Positions 3,628 to 15,942 of a DNA stretch of 64,000 nt are shown piece after piece (within the stretch, counting starts at the first letter, position 1; every line of letters begins with the position of its first letter). A model generated the notes under the pieces. It searched no databases, was not told the origin of the DNA, and saw only the letters and a list, made by a program, of their open reading frames with translations. This DNA comes from Enterobacteria phage P922: sequence record OR999189.1, one strand, 5' to 3'. Position numbers and translations under genes: made by a program.

Positions 3628-4845
<1,218 letters not shown>

Positions 4846-4846
<1 letters not shown>

Positions 4847-5043
4847 TGGCTTGGCATCATGAAACTTGGTCTATTGTTATTGTAAATAGCGGTTTAGTTG
4901 GTACTAGTAATGGGCAATTTTGTGTTTTCACTAGTGAAAACAGAGCTTGGGAGGAATGTCTTAAATTAAGAGAAAAGAATCCTGATGTTGAACTAACAGT
5001 AAAGAAAACTAAACTGCCTTTACCATGGAAAACTTATGAATAA
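4846..5043 (+). CDS. Hypothetical small protein, 65 aa (cd.x cluster)
   Basis: ORF in compact early operon between pseT and cd. Confidence 0.5.
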
Positions 5044-5236
5044 TCTAGAAAAGATTTATCGACTTTGTGATAAAATTGAAAAAGAAAAGAAATATCTATT
5101 TTGTTTATGGCCTATTGTAGATGGAAGAGTAGGCTTAGATGTTCTTGATTATGAAACAGAAGACAAAGTAGATGGTTCAATTTTTGATAACGCTTTGGAT
5201 GTTATTGATTGGCTTGAAGAAAATTATGTGAGGTAA
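5036..5236 (+). CDS. Hypothetical small protein, 66 aa (cd.x cluster)
   Basis: ORF in compact early operon. Confidence 0.5.
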   Translation: MNNLEKIYRLCDKIEKEKKYLFCLWPIVDGRVGLDVLDYETEDKVDGSIFDNALDVIDWLEENYVR

Positions 5237-5238
5237 AT

Positions 5239-5514
5239 ATGTTTCCGACTTACTCTAAAATCGTAGAAGTAGTGTTTAGCCAAATTATCGCTAATAACAT
5301 GTTTGAAAAGCTTGATAACGCAGCTGAGCTTCGAATTCATGCTCAAGTGACTCATGTATTGAACGCTTTGCTTCCAGACCAAGTGGATTCTATTGCAATT
5401 ACGCTGTATCCAGGTTCCGCGCATATCATTGTCGTATTCGGTCTTGATGCTGAGCTAGTCATCAAAGGCGATATTCGTTTTGAATCGCAGACAGCAGAAT
5501 TCAAAGCAATTTAA
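5239..5514 (+). CDS. Hypothetical small protein, 91 aa (cd.x cluster)
   Basis: ORF in compact early operon. Confidence 0.5.
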   Translation: MFPTYSKIVEVVFSQIIANNMFEKLDNAAELRIHAQVTHVLNALLPDQVDSIAITLYPGSAHIIVVFGLDAELVIKGDIRFESQTAEFKAI

Positions 5515-9504: not shown

Positions 9505-9870
9505 ATGAACTACATCAACTTTGAACGTAAATATGTTTCTAACGGTATTGCAGGTTCTATTGATACTATCTGCCTTTGGAAACATCAAAATGGATCAGTA
9601 TGCGAAATTGAACAGTATATGACTCCTAATTACGTTTATATGCGATTTGAAAATGGCATCACGGTTTCAATCACGAAAGAAGGTTCTTCTTTTAAAATCG
9701 CATTAGATGATGATTTTCGTCAACGTGATTTAGGTACCCATCCTTGCTGGAACGGCGTTAATCGTAAGCTTCTGGTTAAAACTTGGATTCGTCATATTCT
9801 GAGTAACAGAGCTAAACCTGAGCATCTTGAAGCAATCTTTGATGTAGTTCTTAACGAATTTGATATTTAA
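9505..9870 (+). CDS. Hypothetical protein, 121 aa (T4 30.7 position)
   Basis: ORF with SD GGAGAA. Confidence 0.6.
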   Translation: MNYINFERKYVSNGIAGSIDTICLWKHQNGSVCEIEQYMTPNYVYMRFENGITVSITKEGSSFKIALDDDFRQRDLGTHPCWNGVNRKLLVKTWIRHILSNRAKPEHLEAIFDVVLNEFDI

Positions 9871-9878
9871 AATAAAAC

Positions 9879-9894
9879 AGGGGCTTCGGCCCCT
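9879..9894 (+). other. Intercistronic RNA hairpin (AGGGGC-TTCG-GCCCCT), no T-run
   Basis: Perfect 6-bp GC stem with UUCG loop. Confidence 0.5.
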
Positions 9895-9910: not shown

Positions 9911-10198
9911 ATGTTTATGACTACTTATTTTGATACCCGCAAAAATTTCTGTGAAGTAGTTTTCTCTAAGGCGCCTAAAGACCTTCCTGCTCATTTGCAG
10001 CCTACCAGTGAATCGATTAAAAACTACGTTAATGTAGTCTGCCCTTTAGAGTTCCGTACTGTAAATGGGCGTGATACTCTAGCTATCACTAAACTCAATC
10101 GTGAAATTGACATTGACCCTTCAATTGCGCATGAAATTAATATTTCTGACATTGGTGGTGGTAATGTTAAATCGCACGGATTTCAGATGAGGTTCTAA
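9911..10198 (+). CDS. Hypothetical protein, 95 aa (T4 30.6 position)
   Basis: ATG 9911 with SD GAGGAA; ORF-track start 9860 would translate through the hairpin. Confidence 0.5.
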   Translation: MFMTTYFDTRKNFCEVVFSKAPKDLPAHLQPTSESIKNYVNVVCPLEFRTVNGRDTLAITKLNREIDIDPSIAHEINISDIGGGNVKSHGFQMRF

Positions 10199-10395
10199 TG
10201 AAATTCTTTTTGGGTCAAACTGTTGAATTAAAGGGAGTCGGTATACCTGGATTAATTTCTAAGGTTTTGCCTGCATTTAAATGGAGAGACGTTCAAATAA
10301 AAGAAGCTTATATTGTTTCTTGGGTAGATGGAAATGAAGACCTTCGTATGGGCGATGAATTATCTCCTATCTATGGATTAAAGGAATTAGTATGA
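10198..10395 (+). CDS. Hypothetical small protein, 65 aa
   Basis: ORF, ATGA overlap. Confidence 0.5.
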   Translation: MKFFLGQTVELKGVGIPGLISKVLPAFKWRDVQIKEAYIVSWVDGNEDLRMGDELSPIYGLKELV

Positions 10396-10598
10396 ATATA
10401 ATTAATAAGATTTTTGGAATTCAGTACATTAAGGTCACATATAAAGTAACATATAAAGGTCCGTATACCGATGAACATGAAGAACCACAAGTTAAGTCTA
10501 TTATATTAGAAAAGGACCCTAACTGGCCAGTTGAATTTCGTCTTCCTTGCTATGGTCATTGGGCTGATGTTGAAATTATAAGTATTGAAAATGTCTGA
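10392..10598 (+). CDS. Hypothetical small protein, 68 aa
   Basis: ORF, ATGA overlap. Confidence 0.5.
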   Translation: MNIINKIFGIQYIKVTYKVTYKGPYTDEHEEPQVKSIILEKDPNWPVEFRLPCYGHWADVEIISIENV

Positions 10599-11049
10599 GC
10601 TAGAGATAAGAAGCAATTTTAGATGGCCATCATGTGCATTAAGCAATTTCGCTCAATGGCCTTTCGTTATGGATGGTATCCAATTTGGAGGTCTCGAAGG
10701 ATTCCTCCAAGGATGTAAGGTGAAAAATGTTGAGCAGCAAAGACGTATATTTGGGATGTCCGGGCTTGCCGCCCAACAAGCTGGAAGGTCTTATGCTAGA
10801 GCTCAGGACCGTGGGACCCTCTTTTGGCTTGGAGTTCCATTTTCAAGATACTCTCCAGCATGGAAAGAATTATACACAAATGCATATTTTGAAGCAGCAA
10901 TCCAAAACAGGGGCTTTCGTGATGCATTACAAGCCTCAAAAGGAAAAGTTTTGAAGCACAGCATGGCTAGTGGTCTAACAAAAGATGATACAATACTAAC
11001 CGAAGCTGAATTTATTGATGTGTTAAACCTATTAAGAGACTCTCTATGA
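10585..11049 (+). CDS. NADAR-like (YbiA/DUF1768-like) protein, 154 aa
   Basis: N-terminal motif LSNFAQWPFVMDGIQFGGLEGFLQGCKV resembles the SNFxxWP...DG...E(H)xFQ signature of YbiA-family proteins; C-terminal WG motif not evident. Confidence 0.6.
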   Translation: MKMSELEIRSNFRWPSCALSNFAQWPFVMDGIQFGGLEGFLQGCKVKNVEQQRRIFGMSGLAAQQAGRSYARAQDRGTLFWLGVPFSRYSPAWKELYTNAYFEAAIQNRGFRDALQASKGKVLKHSMASGLTKDDTILTEAEFIDVLNLLRDSL

Positions 11050-11885
11050 AGCCAACTATTTTAACTGATATTGATGGAGTATGTTTAAGCTGGCAATCAG
11101 GCCTTCCTTATTTTGCTCAGAAATATAATCTTCCATTAGAACATATTTTAAAAATGATCCAAGATGAGAAATTTATTTCTCCGGGTAAACTCTTTAATTG
11201 TGACGAAGAACTTGGCGTCAAGTTAATTGAAAAATACAATCGTTCAGATTTTATTCGTTACTTGTCTCCGTATAAAGATGCCCTGTGTGTAATTAACAAA
11301 TTAAAAGAAGATTATAATTTTGTAGCTGTTACAGCATTGGGTGATTCTATTGACGCTCTGTTGAATCGTCAATTTAATTTGAATGCTCTTTTTCCTGGTG
11401 CTTTCTCGGAAGTAATGATGTGTGGTCATGATTCTTCAAAAGAAGAGCTGTTCAAAAAGGCAAAAGAGAAATATAACGTAATTTGTTATATTGACGATCT
11501 CGCTCATCACTGCGATCATGCGAGTGAAATATTAAATGTTCCAGTTTATTGGATGGCTCGAGGAGAGCGTGACAATATTCCAAAAACTGCGCAGCGAGTT
11601 TATACATGGAATGATGTAGAAAATAAGCTTTTTTCACCAAAGGAAAATAAAGAAAGTTTTGATAGTGAAAAAGCTATAAAAGATTTAATTGAGAAGATGG
11701 TTAAAAACGATTCTTTTCCTTGGAACACTACCTGGAGAACGCCTGGATTAAATCCTTATAATCATCTATATCATCCATATCAGACACATCCGTTTCAGAC
11801 ATGGAACTATATTAAACCTGGTGGCATAGAGTATTTGTATAATAGACCTACTAGTGGTGATAATATTTTTCAAGGAGCATTCTAA
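11046..11885 (+). CDS. HAD-superfamily hydrolase-like protein (possible nucleotidase), 279 aa
   Basis: N-terminal HAD motif I ILTDIDGV; translationally coupled to NADAR-like ORF. Confidence 0.6.
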   Translation: MKPTILTDIDGVCLSWQSGLPYFAQKYNLPLEHILKMIQDEKFISPGKLFNCDEELGVKLIEKYNRSDFIRYLSPYKDALCVINKLKEDYNFVAVTALGDSIDALLNRQFNLNALFPGAFSEVMMCGHDSSKEELFKKAKEKYNVICYIDDLAHHCDHASEILNVPVYWMARGERDNIPKTAQRVYTWNDVENKLFSPKENKESFDSEKAIKDLIEKMVKNDSFPWNTTWRTPGLNPYNHLYHPYQTHPFQTWNYIKPGGIEYLYNRPTSGDNIFQGAF

Positions 11886-12154
11886 TGTTTGTTGTTCATA
11901 CTATTTATGAAAATGAAGGTAATACTACACGTGATTACGGCCACGTAAATCAATTTTTTAGATGCAATCCAGAATTCCGAGCTCAAAAAGACGAACGAAT
12001 TTTTAAAAAATGTGTAGAACAAGGTTTCATTTACGTCAAGCACTGGATGCAAGGAAATAAAGTTAGAACTACATATCATAAGTCTTTGCCTGAGCTTAAT
12101 GATGAATTGATTTATAATAGAGCTGTAAACCAAACCCTGAAGGATGAGCAATGA
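11885..12154 (+). CDS. Hypothetical small protein, 89 aa (T4 30.1 position)
   Basis: ORF coupled to ligase gene. Confidence 0.5.
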   Translation: MFVVHTIYENEGNTTRDYGHVNQFFRCNPEFRAQKDERIFKKCVEQGFIYVKHWMQGNKVRTTYHKSLPELNDELIYNRAVNQTLKDEQ

Positions 12155-13611
12155 TTCTTAAAATTCTGAATGAAATAGCATCTATTGGATCAACTAAACA
12201 GAAGCAAGCAATTCTTGAAAAGAATAAAGATAATGAATTGCTTAAACGAGTATATCGTCTGACTTATTCTCGTGGGTTACAGTATTATATCAAGAAATGG
12301 CCTAAACCTGGTATTGCTACCCAGAGTTTTGGAATGCTGACTATTACTGATATGCTTGACTTCATTGAATTCACGTTAGCTACTCGGAAATTAACTGGCA
12401 ATGCAGCAATTGAGGAATTAACTGGATATATCACCGATGGTAAAAAGGATGATGTTGAAGTTTTGCGTCGAGTTATGATGCGAGACCTTGAATGTGGTGC
12501 TTCAGTATCTATTGCAAACAAAGTTTGGCCAGGTTTAATTCCTGAACAACCTCAAATGCTGGCAAGTTCTTATGATGAAAAAGGCATTAGTAAGAATATC
12601 AAGTTTCCAGCCTTTGCGCAGTTAAAAGCAGACGGAGCTCGGTGTTTTGCTGAAGTCCGAGGCGATGAATTAGATGATGTTCGTCTTTTATCACGAGCTG
12701 GTAATGAATATCTAGGATTAGATCTTCTTAAGGAAGAGTTAATCAAAATGACTGCTGAAGCCCGCCAGATTCATCCAGAAGGTGTGTTAATTGATGGCGA
12801 ATTGGTATACCATGAGCAAGTTGAAAAGGAACCAGAAGGCCTAGATTTTCTTTTTGATGCTACTGAAATCAGTAAAGCTAAAGACTTCACAGAAGTAGCT
12901 GAATCTCGTACTGCTTCTAATGGAATCGCTAATAAATCTTTAAAGGGAACCATTTCTGAAAAAGAAGCCAAATGCATGAAGTTTCAGGTCTGGGATTATG
13001 TCCCGTTGGTAGAAATATACGGTCTTCCGGCGTTTCGTTTAAAATATGATGTACGTTTTTCTAAACTAGAACAAATGACATCAGGATATGATAAAGTAAT
13101 TTTAATTGAAAACCAGGTAGTAAATAACCTAGATGAAGCTAAGGTAATTTATAAAAAATATATTGACCGAGGTCTTGAAGGTATTATTCTCAAAAATACC
13201 GATGGATTGTGGGAAAATGCTCGTTCAAAAAATCTCTATAAATTTAAAGAAGTAATTGATGTTGATTTAAAAATTGTAGGAATTTATCCTCACCGTAAAG
13301 ACCCTACTAAAGCAGGTGGATTTATTCTTGAATCAGAATGCGGAAAAATTAAAGTAAACGCTGGTTCAGGTTTAAAAGATAAAGCTGGTGTAAAATCACA
13401 TGAACTTGACCGTACTCGCATTATGGAAAACCAAAATTATTATATTGGAAAAATTCTAGAGTGCGAATGCAATGGTTGGTTAAAATCTGATGGCCGCACT
13501 GATTACGTTAAATTATTTCTTCCAATTGCGATTCGTTTACGTGAAGATAAAACTAAAGCTAATACATTCGAGGATGTATTTGGTGATTTTCATGAGGTAA
13601 CTGGTCTATGA
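12151..13611 (+). CDS. 30: ATP-dependent DNA ligase, 486 aa
   Basis: Adenylation motif KADGAR (AQLKADGARCF); length matches T4 gp30 (487 aa). Confidence 0.95.
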   Translation: MILKILNEIASIGSTKQKQAILEKNKDNELLKRVYRLTYSRGLQYYIKKWPKPGIATQSFGMLTITDMLDFIEFTLATRKLTGNAAIEELTGYITDGKKDDVEVLRRVMMRDLECGASVSIANKVWPGLIPEQPQMLASSYDEKGISKNIKFPAFAQLKADGARCFAEVRGDELDDVRLLSRAGNEYLGLDLLKEELIKMTAEARQIHPEGVLIDGELVYHEQVEKEPEGLDFLFDATEISKAKDFTEVAESRTASNGIANKSLKGTISEKEAKCMKFQVWDYVPLVEIYGLPAFRLKYDVRFSKLEQMTSGYDKVILIENQVVNNLDEAKVIYKKYIDRGLEGIILKNTDGLWENARSKNLYKFKEVIDVDLKIVGIYPHRKDPTKAGGFILESECGKIKVNAGSGLKDKAGVKSHELDRTRIMENQNYYIGKILECECNGWLKSDGRTDYVKLFLPIAIRLREDKTKANTFEDVFGDFHEVTGL

Positions 13612-13796
13612 AAGCTTACTTAGAAACAATTGTCGTTGCTCAAAAAGAAGGTGGAGATGTTTCTACTTCTGTATCACAAATCGTTCTTGAATTTGTAGAT
13701 GCATATGCTTATAATAAATTTACAGAAACATTTGATGCCTATGAAAAAGGTCCGAAGTTTGAAATATACCGTACTCTCTTACCACTAGATTATTAA
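13608..13796 (+). CDS. Hypothetical small protein, 62 aa
   Basis: ORF overlapping ligase stop (ATGA). Confidence 0.5.
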   Translation: MKAYLETIVVAQKEGGDVSTSVSQIVLEFVDAYAYNKFTETFDAYEKGPKFEIYRTLLPLDY

Positions 13797-13825: not shown

Positions 13826-13848
13826 GAATAAACACTAGAGAGGATATG

Positions 13849-15942
13849 ATGGAACTCATTACAGAATTATTTGACGAAGATACTACTCTTCCGATTACAA
13901 ACTTAAATCCAAAGAAGAAAATACCGCAAATTTTTTCAGTTCATGTTGATGACGCAATTGAACAACCAGGCTTTCGTTTATGTACCTATACATCTGGAGG
14001 TGATACTAATCGCGATTTAAAAATGGGCGATAAAATGATGCATATTGTTCCTTTTACATTAACTGCTAAAGGTTCAATTGCTAAATTAAAAGGTCTCGGT
14101 CCAAGCCCAATTAATTATATCAATTCAGTTTTTACTGTTGCAATGCAGACGATGCGTCAGTATAAAATTGATGCCTGTATGCTCCGTATTCTTAAGTCTA
14201 AAACTGCTGGTCAAGCTCGACAAATTCAAGTTATTGCTGATAGACTTATCCGTAGTCGTTCAGGTGGCAGATACGTCCTTCTTAAGGAACTCTGGGATTA
14301 CGATAAAAAGTATGCATATATTCTTATACATCGCAAAAATGTATCACTAGAAGACATTCCAGGAGTTCCGGAAATTAGTACCGAGCTCTTTACTAAAGTT
14401 GAATCGAAAGTCGGCGATGTTTATATCAATAAAGATACTGGTGCTCAAGTAACTAAAAATGAGGCAATTGCAGCATCTATTGCGCAAGAAAATGATAAAC
14501 GCTCTGACCAAGCTGTAATCGTTAAAGTTAAAATTTCCCGTAGAGCAATTGCGCAAAGTCAATCATTAGAATCTTCTAGATTTGAAAGCGAATTATTCCA
14601 GAAGTATGAATCTACTGCAGCTAATTTCAATAAACCTGCTACTGCTCCTTTAATTCCAGAAGCAGAAGAAATGAAGCTTGGAATTAATTCATTAGCTTCT
14701 AAAACTAAGGCAGCAAAAATTATTGCTGAAGGAACTGCAGATGAACTTCACTATGACTATAAATTCTTTTCAAAAAGTGAGGTTAATGAAGTTTCTGAAA
14801 AAATTAAAGATGTAATTCTTAATGCGATTAAAAATGAACCAACTACTTCAATAAAATGTTTAGAGAAATACGCAGCAGCTGTTAATAAATTCTTTGAAGA
14901 ATACAAAGATAAATGGCTTGATAAACATAATAAAACCCGTAAAGGACAGCCAGATGAAGTCTGGGAAGAAATAACTAAAAATTCCTGGAACGCAGCAAAA
15001 ACTAAATTCCTCAAACGAATGATTTATAGTTTTTCTGGAATTGGTGCAGGTCCAATGATTGATATTACCATTGCACGCGATGGTTCTAAATATACTCCAT
15101 CGCAAAAGCGCGGCATTAGAGAGTATTGTGGATCAGGATATACTGACATCAATAATCTTCTTTTAGGCCGCTACAATCCAGAACGATATGATGTAATGAG
15201 TGAAAAAGAAATTGAATCTGCTATAAATAACTTAGATTCAGCTTTTGAAAATGGTGACCGTATACCAGAAGGCATTACAGTTTATCGTGCTCAAAGTATG
15301 ACTGCTCCTATATACGAAGCACTAGTTAAAAATAAAGTGTTCTATTTCAGAAATTTTGTATCTACTTCTTTAACTCCTATCATTTTTGGACGTTTTGGAA
15401 TTACACATGCTGGTATTGGTCTTTTAGAACCAGAAGCTCGTAATGAATTGACAGTTGATAAAAATGAAGAAGGAATAACTATTAATCCAAACGAAATAAG
15501 AGCGTATAAAGAAAATCCTGAATACGTTAAAGTTCAAATAGGATGGGCAATTGATGGAGCTCATAAAGTTAATGTTGTATATCCAGGAAGTCTCGGAATA
15601 GCAACAGAAGCTGAAGTTATTCTACCGCGCGGATTGATGGTCAAAGTTAATAAAATAACTGATGCTTCTAATAATGACGGAACAACATCTAATAATACAA
15701 AACTCATTCAAGCTGAAGTTATGACTACAGAAGAACTCACCGAATCAGTAATTTATGATGGAGACCATTTAATGGAAACTGGTGAAGTAGTTGCAATGAC
15801 AGGTGATATTGAAATAGAAGACAGAGTTGACTTTGCATCATTTGTTTCATCAAACGTTAAACAGAAAGTAGAATCATCTCTTGGAATTATTGCGTCTTGC
15901 ATAGATATTACAAACATGCCTTACAAGTTCGTTCAAGGATAA
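13849..15942 (+). CDS. alt: Alt ADP-ribosyltransferase (packaged, injected), 697 aa
   Basis: N-terminus MELITELFDEDTTLPITNL matches recalled T4 Alt; ART-like R/STS/EAE motifs (TVYRAQ, FVSTSL, EAEVILPRG). Confidence 0.9.
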   Translation: MELITELFDEDTTLPITNLNPKKKIPQIFSVHVDDAIEQPGFRLCTYTSGGDTNRDLKMGDKMMHIVPFTLTAKGSIAKLKGLGPSPINYINSVFTVAMQTMRQYKIDACMLRILKSKTAGQARQIQVIADRLIRSRSGGRYVLLKELWDYDKKYAYILIHRKNVSLEDIPGVPEISTELFTKVESKVGDVYINKDTGAQVTKNEAIAASIAQENDKRSDQAVIVKVKISRRAIAQSQSLESSRFESELFQKYESTAANFNKPATAPLIPEAEEMKLGINSLASKTKAAKIIAEGTADELHYDYKFFSKSEVNEVSEKIKDVILNAIKNEPTTSIKCLEKYAAAVNKFFEEYKDKWLDKHNKTRKGQPDEVWEEITKNSWNAAKTKFLKRMIYSFSGIGAGPMIDITIARDGSKYTPSQKRGIREYCGSGYTDINNLLLGRYNPERYDVMSEKEIESAINNLDSAFENGDRIPEGITVYRAQSMTAPIYEALVKNKVFYFRNFVSTSLTPIIFGRFGITHAGIGLLEPEARNELTVDKNEEGITINPNEIRAYKENPEYVKVQIGWAIDGAHKVNVVYPGSLGIATEAEVILPRGLMVKVNKITDASNNDGTTSNNTKLIQAEVMTTEELTESVIYDGDHLMETGEVVAMTGDIEIEDRVDFASFVSSNVKQKVESSLGIIASCIDITNMPYKFVQG

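Follow-up and report, generated by a model that had tools for sequence, protein, structure and literature searches.

Genes 30.3 and 30.2 of Enterobacteria phage P922 are, very probably, neighbours with separate functions that lie side by side in the early/middle gene string running from 30.7 to alt.1 in a T4-type phage. The first corresponds to adfN of T4, and the second would encode a capped phosphatase. The earlier note on this DNA had suggested that the two constitute a translationally coupled module for ADP-ribose clean-up or anti-defence. That suggestion is not supported: overlaps between genes are generic here, synteny links 30.2 to the DNA ligase gene, and insertions in T4 30.2 are neutral on a DarTG1 host in the available part of a transposon-sequencing preprint.

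The window, i.e., the whole 64,000-nucleotide stretch of sequence record OR999189.1 that was analyzed, contains both ORFs on the plus strand where the earlier note had placed them, and the overlap it described between the stop codon of one and the start codon of the other is real (ATGA, 11046-11049). The segment between positions 10300 and 12200 matches many Tequatrovirus (T4-type) genomes with 97-99% DNA identity, the top match being Shigella phage CT01 (99%). Genes 30.8, 30.7, 30.6, 30.5, 30.4, 30.3, 30.2, 30.1, 30 (DNA ligase), alt.1 and alt follow one another in this order on the plus strand, which is the order of the T4 and RB69 annotations. Gene identities, folds, motifs and synteny were established in the present analysis, and the features concerned are as follows.

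10392-10598, plus strand: gene 30.4, 68 aa, PHROG 2042, without assigned function
10591-10598, plus strand: last 8 nt of 30.4, ATGTCTGA, shared with the start of adfN (junction table)
10591-11049, plus strand: gene 30.3 = adfN, 152 aa, predicted NADAR-superfamily DNA ADP-ribosylglycohydrolase (Pfam PF08010)
10696-10698, 10717-10719 and 10957-10959, plus strand: 30.3 catalytic codons E36, K43 and H123, respectively (roles from PMC11825919 and PMC11125620; checked in the window sequence)
10727-10954, plus strand: 30.3', internal out-of-frame ORF within adfN, 75 aa (ORF list)
11046-11049, plus strand: ATGA overlap of the 30.3 stop and the 30.2 start (sequence and junction table; same in the T4 annotation)
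11046-11885, plus strand: gene 30.2, 279 aa, predicted HAD-superfamily phosphatase
11046-11642, plus strand: gp30.2 residues 1-199, core with C1 helical cap (confident model)
11067-11069, 11073-11075, 11331-11333, 11439-11441 and 11493-11498, plus strand: gp30.2 motif codons D8, D10, T96, K132 and D150-D151, respectively
11885-12154, plus strand: gene 30.1, 89 aa, DUF3045 (Pfam PF11243, E 5.6e-63), between 30.2 and the ligase gene
12151-13611, plus strand: gene 30, ATP-dependent DNA ligase (Pfam PF01068, E 9.6e-33)
13846-15942, plus strand: gene alt, packaged ADP-ribosyltransferase (Pfam PF03496, E 1.9e-37; T4 gene order agrees)

In the ATGA overlap, the ATG of 30.2 occupies positions 11046-11048 and the TGA of 30.3 positions 11047-11049. 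This arrangement is not special, since all seven consecutive junctions from 30.6 (taken from its ATG at 9911) to alt.1 overlap, by 1-8 nt. The overlap would reflect a compact, translationally linked gene string as a whole and not a dedicated two-enzyme pathway. A scan for promoters and terminators returned a number of sites no higher than in shuffled sequence. The T4 annotation describes 30.3' as an [quoted passage not shown]. The earlier note had also placed the two ORFs near phage ADP-ribosyltransferase (ART) genes, and the PF03496 match at 13846-15942, an Alt-type enzyme, agrees with this. The closeness to alt is shared synteny; it gives no support to the idea that AdfN undoes the work of the ARTs encoded by the phage itself.

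In the ORF list, ORF 1 starts at a TTG (10585) and encodes 154 aa; a start at the ATG at 10591 gives 152 aa. Judging from the sequence, the ATG is the true start of 30.3, since it agrees with the T4 annotation and is the only one of the two that reproduces the published residue numbering (E36, K43). The predicted protein matches Pfam family PF08010 (Phage_30_3) over the full length of the model (E 3.9e-70; 234.5 bits, with a cut-off of 36) and is identical to T4 gp30.3 at about 150 of 152 positions (98%). The substitutions relative to the T4 protein, listed as three (L56M, K107R and I125M), are all conservative.

The string LSNFAQWPFVMDGIQFGGLEGFLQGCKV, in which the earlier note had seen a likeness to YbiA/NADAR proteins, is present in ORF 1. 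A phmmer search with the single protein retrieved YbiA (2b3w) at E 1.5, the match spanning exactly the LSNFAQWPFVMDGIQFGGLEGFLQGCKV motif, and a profile built from 44 gp30.3 relatives retrieved the same structure at E 0.0026. The AF2 model of the protein (pLDDT 93.8) has a NADAR fold. When it was compared with the PDB using Foldseek, the first three ranks were taken by YbiA (2b3w), the Phytophthora NADAR (8bau) and the Geobacter NADAR (8bat), with probabilities of 1.00, 1.00 and 0.98, respectively, and a TM score of 0.69 to YbiA; later matches had probabilities of 0.06 or less. The likeness to NADAR proteins is thus confirmed by the profile, by the model and by the three top-ranking structures. 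In the alignment of the 44 relatives, E36 and H123 do not vary, and at least 90% of the sequences have K43. The earlier note had regarded the protein as a possibly divergent NADAR without the usual C-terminal WG motif. The NADAR assignment stands; the protein is, however, not an unrecognized divergent member but part of a phage clade that already has a name, gp30.3/AdfN. The apparently missing C-terminal motif is explained by a His of the phage clade in the last strand (H123, invariant in the 44 sequences) that replaces Glu/Asp (PMC11125620). No DarT or ART domain was found beside 30.3 in Pfam scans of eight neighbouring ORFs. We conclude that the product of 30.3 is an orphan member of the NADAR superfamily in the phage gp30.3/AdfN clade.

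What is said below about the activity of AdfN, its DarTG1 phenotype and the dispensable nature of 30.2 comes from the work of others on T4. Schuller and colleagues found T4 gp30.3 to be active in vitro on guanine-linked ADP-ribose, which it hydrolyses, and noted that phage NADARs have a His where other NADARs have Glu or Asp (PMC11125620). Johannesman et al. renamed gene 30.3 adfN, for anti-DarT factor NADAR (Nat Commun 2025, PMC11825919). [quoted passage not shown] This helix (residues 138-151) is intact in the window protein and truncated in the 30.3 protein of RB69, the sensitive phage. Full function of AdfN-T4 was observed only during T-even infection, where, according to the authors, a further phage protein may be required (PMC11825919). 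What the earlier note had offered as a guess, i.e., reversal of DNA guanine ADP-ribosylation directed against DarTG, has therefore been demonstrated experimentally for a T4 protein 98% identical to the one studied here (PMC11825919, PMC11125620).

T4 AdfN is the product of the same gene of a sister phage, located in the same slot between 30.4 and 30.2; E36, K43, H123 and the C-terminal helix are identical in the two alleles, which differ by the three substitutions listed above. By analogy with this 98%-identical ortholog, the window AdfN would detach ADP-ribose hydrolytically from the guanines of phage DNA that the host toxin DarT1 has modified, and the removal of ADP-ribose would restore replication in DarTG1 hosts. 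The fold and the N-terminal catalytic motif are common to gp30.3, to DarG1 of DarT1-NADAR operons (Geobacter lovleyi, 8bat) and to E. coli YbiA (2b3w), though the sequence identity of gp30.3 to NADAR structures is ca. 15-17%. Hydrolysis of guanine-linked ADP-ribose in vitro is likewise shared by T4 gp30.3 and NADARs of the DarG1 and YbiA types (PMC11125620). In contrast to DarG1, which is encoded in DarT1-NADAR operons, gp30.3 is an orphan without an adjacent DarT; its His corresponds to an Asp in proteins of the DarG1 type and to a Glu in those of the YbiA type (PMC11125620), and in uninfected cells the T4 protein cannot take over the antitoxin role of DarG1 (PMC11125620, PMC11825919).

A direct comparison of the two genes during infection is provided by transposon sequencing of T4 (bioRxiv 10.1101/2025.11.20.689424), with statements here limited to the available part of that preprint. 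The comparison concerns one DarTG1 system in one host. On the DarTG1 host, insertions in 30.3 were depleted ca. 150-fold (log2FC -7.25), whereas insertions in 30.2 were neutral (log2FC -0.12, p 0.61, 71 sites) (10.1101/2025.11.20.689424). Significant depletion was reported for two genes only, 30.3 and 30.4, the latter with a log2FC of -1.79 and an adjusted p of 0.014 (10.1101/2025.11.20.689424). The depletion of 30.4 would be explained most simply by a polar effect on adfN across the 8-nt overlap. Insertions in 30.2 were also neutral on DarTG2 (log2FC 0.00) and in minimal medium (-0.10), and in K-12 the gene tolerated insertion at 72 of 72 TA sites, with the ligase gene being essential (10.1101/2025.11.20.689424). 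The hits named for the screens of T4 on clinical isolates do not include 30.2, and "30.2" does not occur anywhere in the main text (10.1101/2025.11.20.689424). The possibility was also weighed that gp30.2 is the T-even cofactor required by AdfN, for which its position makes it an obvious candidate. The presence of 30.2 in RB69 fits this role, but, since insertions in 30.2 are neutral on DarTG1 in the available data, gp30.2 is excluded as an AdfN cofactor for that system.

ORF 2 begins, on the plus strand, with MKPTILTDIDGV and was identified as gene 30.2 by its slot in the T4 annotation and by its close similarity to T4 gp30.2. Searches with the single gp30.2 sequence found no Pfam family at E ≤ 1, no NCBIfam match and nothing usable in the PDB, and its PHROG family has no annotated function. 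A literature search for "gp30.2" found no paper and no biochemical data; a search combining 30.2 with HAD, ligase, NT5C and T4-like returned nothing on gene 30.2. In the alignment of 42 relatives, D8, D10 and K132 are invariant and T96, D150 and D151 are present in at least 90%; among 142 distant representatives, D8, D10, K132 and D151 are retained. All four HAD motifs can thus be recognized: the DxD of motif I, the Thr/Ser of motif II, the Lys of motif III and the DD of motif IV. W16, R108 and N111 are invariant residues specific to the family. In the model, a Rossmann-like core carries a helical insert (residues ca. 13-88) between the DxD loop and the strand formed by residues 91-96, i.e., a C1 cap; the tail (residues 200-279) is mostly disordered and varies in length among relatives. 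The earlier note had called the ORF a HAD-type hydrolase, and the four motifs, together with the HAD core and cap in the model, agree with this. By its motifs and predicted fold, gp30.2 appears to be a genuine phosphatase of the HAD superfamily.

The top Foldseek matches of gp30.2 would suggest a dehalogenase or an epoxide hydrolase, and in structural scores generic HADs, including dehalogenases and epoxide hydrolases, equal the nucleotidases. A HAD DxD motif with a second Asp is a signature of phosphatases and not of dehalogenases, and both of these functions were rejected on this ground. Capped (C1) HADs take small molecules, while phosphatases acting on macromolecules, such as Pnkp, are capless; the helical C1 cap therefore points to a small-molecule substrate for gp30.2.

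A profile of the gp30.2 family had a sole meaningful match in the PDB, the mouse 5'(3')-deoxyribonucleotidase (cdN) 2jao, at E 0.042. An exhaustive profile search for the family collected 1423 cluster representatives. When 142 of these were scanned with Pfam, 34 matched NT5C (PF06941, counted at E ≤ 0.001), 14 the generic Hydrolase family and 10 HAD_2. Two representatives that were checked exceed the PF06941 cut-off of 24.8 bits (38.4 and 35.6 bits); the window gp30.2 itself does not reach the gathering score of this family. The NT5C enzymes (mouse and human cdN/mdN, 2jao, 2i7d and 4yih, and S. epidermidis 3bwv) have the HAD core, the C1 helical cap and the DxD motif in common with gp30.2 and provide both its best sequence-level match in the PDB and its structural match of highest identity; gp30.2 differs from them by an extra, mostly disordered tail of ca. 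80 residues. NT5C is thus the nearest named family of gp30.2 and does not stand for a demonstrated specificity. With NT5C as the nearest family, we infer that a small nucleotide-like phosphoester is the best guess for the substrate class. The predicted enzyme would be a Mg-dependent phosphatase of the DxD type that most likely removes the phosphate from (deoxy)nucleoside monophosphates or comparable small phosphoesters, and its role may be accessory to phage DNA and nucleotide metabolism.

The neighbourhoods of the two genes were compared across viral genomes. When gp30.2 served as the anchor, 75 of 80 viral loci had a ligase gene within 4 kb, and 37 had a gp30.3-type NADAR gene within the same distance, adjacent in 22. 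Of 80 loci anchored on NADAR, conversely, 19 have a HAD gene within 5 kb and 61 do not. After the gp30.2 loci were collapsed at 70% identity into 27 lineages, the ligase gene was a short way downstream in ca. 22, with HAD and ligase ORFs often overlapping or abutting; NADAR was within 4 kb in 11 lineages and adjacent in ca. 8. Wherever the genes are this close (11 of 27 lineages), the order is always NADAR, HAD, ligase. At least seven near-complete genomes (e.g., L016/L107 and L029/L153) contain both genes ca. 55-60 kb apart. On distant T4-like contigs, the HAD gene is found beside a PD-(D/E)XK nuclease gene, with gp59 and gp32 following within a few kb, or immediately before UvsX; in one distant phage without a ligase (L118), a distant HAD gene lies upstream of a gp30.3-type NADAR gene, at a distance of two genes. 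Nearly all gammaproteobacterial T4-like phages have 30.2 (1455 records) and 30.3 (1510 records), so that the co-occurrence of the two is uninformative as to linkage, and genome-level co-occurrence was dropped as linkage evidence. A weak positional association of NADAR and HAD genes exists, which we read as inherited gene order. By position, 30.2 is tied to the DNA ligase gene rather than to adfN.

Three other readings of the locus were weighed against functional separation of the two genes. If AdfN and gp30.2 acted as a two-step module, the glycosidase would free ADP-ribose from DNA or protein, the phosphatase would process the product, and translational coupling would fix their ratio. We give this scheme scarcely any chance. 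The ATGA overlap that inspired it is real but, as described above, generic in the operon, and the adjacency of the genes in ca. 8 of 27 lineages (11 of 27 within 4 kb, in constant order), as well as the arrangement in L118, is set against the 61 of 80 NADAR loci without a HAD gene within 5 kb and the at least seven genomes with the genes ca. 55 kb apart. No NADAR-HAD fusion was found among 95 gp30.3 relatives and 100 gp30.2 relatives. NADAR hydrolysis leaves DNA intact, and no phosphatase step is chemically required after it. The requirement of AdfN-T4 for a T-even context, and maybe for another phage protein (PMC11825919), would suit the scheme, as would the presence of 30.2 in RB69, the phage rescued by ectopic adfN-T4; on DarTG1, however, the available data give a log2FC of -0.12 for 30.2 against -7.25 for 30.3 (10.1101/2025.11.20.689424), and for this system the two-step module is already largely refuted.

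The proximity to gene 30 suggests another role, that of a DNA-end 3'-phosphatase which would heal nicks for the adjacent ligase in the manner of the HAD domain of T4 polynucleotide kinase-phosphatase. The HAD-ligase pair of ca. 22 of 27 lineages, with its often overlapping or abutting ORFs, and the location of distant relatives among replication and recombination genes are consistent with such a role. We nevertheless consider it very unlikely: the gp30.2 model has a substantial helical cap in contrast to the capless Pnkp, the Pnkp match is limited to a core of 126-129 residues and ranks below many capped enzymes, T4 already has PseT, and, in the available part of the preprint, T4 can do without 30.2 altogether but not without its ligase gene. 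The phosphatase domain of T4 PseT, too, is capless and acts on nucleic-acid ends, and the capped gp30.2 aligns with it over the core only. Finally, gp30.2 might be a conditionally essential counter-defence or niche phosphatase that destroys a host-made immune signal of the nucleotide type or a toxic nucleotide. In a weaker variant of this reading, it might process a phosphoester derived from ADP-ribose in connection with some defence system that is not DarTG1. Genes that are near-universal yet dispensable in the laboratory show a pattern typical of anti-defence genes, and 30.2 combines 1455 records in gammaproteobacterial T4-like phages with dispensability in laboratory E. coli in every readable condition of the available data. 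Its nucleotidase-like family and its place in a string of early genes, where a proven anti-defence gene is its neighbour, point the same way. On the other hand, the main text on the T4 clinical-isolate screens does not name 30.2, and its conserved location next to replication genes would be just as expected of a housekeeping function in nucleotide metabolism; we regard the counter-defence role as rather unlikely. Functional separation of 30.3 and 30.2 remains the preferred reading.

For 30.3, whose function was published in 2024-2025, these results bring nothing new. The DarTG1 data, as far as the available part of the preprint goes, eliminate the protein that would come to mind first as the T-even factor required by AdfN. 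Gene 30.2, one of the most widely conserved uncharacterized genes of T4-like phages, can now be described as encoding a predicted capped, NT5C-like HAD phosphatase. The counter-defence role, if true, would explain why nearly all gammaproteobacterial T4-like phages retain a gene in which, according to the same data, 72 of 72 TA sites can be disrupted.

Besides adfN (gene 30.3), whose NADAR glycohydrolase product counters the host defence system DarTG1, gene 30.4 alone showed significant depletion on DarTG1 (log2FC -1.79, adjusted p 0.014) in a published T4 transposon screen (bioRxiv 10.1101/2025.11.20.689424). The gene and an open reading frame internal to adfN are placed in the window as follows:

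10392-10598, plus strand: gene 30.4, whose final 8 nt (10591-10598) are shared with the start of adfN
10727-10954, plus strand: 30.3' (75 aa), lying in another frame within adfN and annotated in T4

Since the 3' end of 30.4 overlaps the adfN start by 8 nt, the simplest reading of the 30.4 depletion is that adfN is affected through polarity or translational coupling. It is possible that 30.4 has a role of its own. The frame of 30.3', which the T4 annotation describes as "internal translation in a different reading frame", is intact in the window. As for the length of gp30.3 itself, it is 152 aa both in T4 and in the window, whereas the T4 NADAR construct is given in the methods of PMC11125620 as "gp30.3; residues 1-208"; the figure of 208 residues may include tags.

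Two further features lie to either side of adfN and 30.2 in the gene string:

9879-9894: GC-rich hairpin AGGGGC-TTCG-GCCCCT, between the end of 30.7 (9870) and the ATG of 30.6 (9911)
13608-13796: alt.1, a small open reading frame between the ligase gene and alt

The hairpin occupies the sole non-overlapping gap of this gene string. Its minus strand was scored as terminator-like in the promoter/terminator scan, and its plus strand forms a UUCG-loop hairpin immediately upstream of the ribosome-binding site of 30.6. For this gene the automatic ORF list takes the TTG at 9860 as the start, which is probably spurious, since the ATG at 9911 yields 95 aa, the same as in T4. The alt.1 product matches PF24647, a recent Pfam entry named "Phage blade protein", with an E value of 1e-29.

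The frameshift responsible for the truncated 30.3 of RB69 leaves a 42-nt gap ahead of 30.2 as well (at 10226-10267 of that locus), and the 30.3/30.2 overlap is therefore absent there. A more distant arrangement was retrieved from a 166-kb viral contig:

3736-5456 of locus L118: a distant gp30.2-like HAD protein and a gp30.3-type NADAR

The HAD gene (hmmsearch E value 1e-19) is located two genes upstream of the NADAR gene. No ligase gene was found within 5 kb of the pair, making it the single case of HAD-NADAR proximity without a nearby ligase gene among the loci surveyed.

The structure model and an alignment of relatives delimit one more element:

11646-11885, plus strand: tail of gp30.2, residues 200-279

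The tail is rich in aromatic residues and proline and is predicted by the model to be mostly disordered, with the exception of a single helix at residues 207-220. As can be seen from the alignment, many gp30.2 relatives lack the tail or carry a different one, and a short GIEYL..PT-like stretch within it recurs among some distant relatives. The gp30.2 tail might be a docking peptide.
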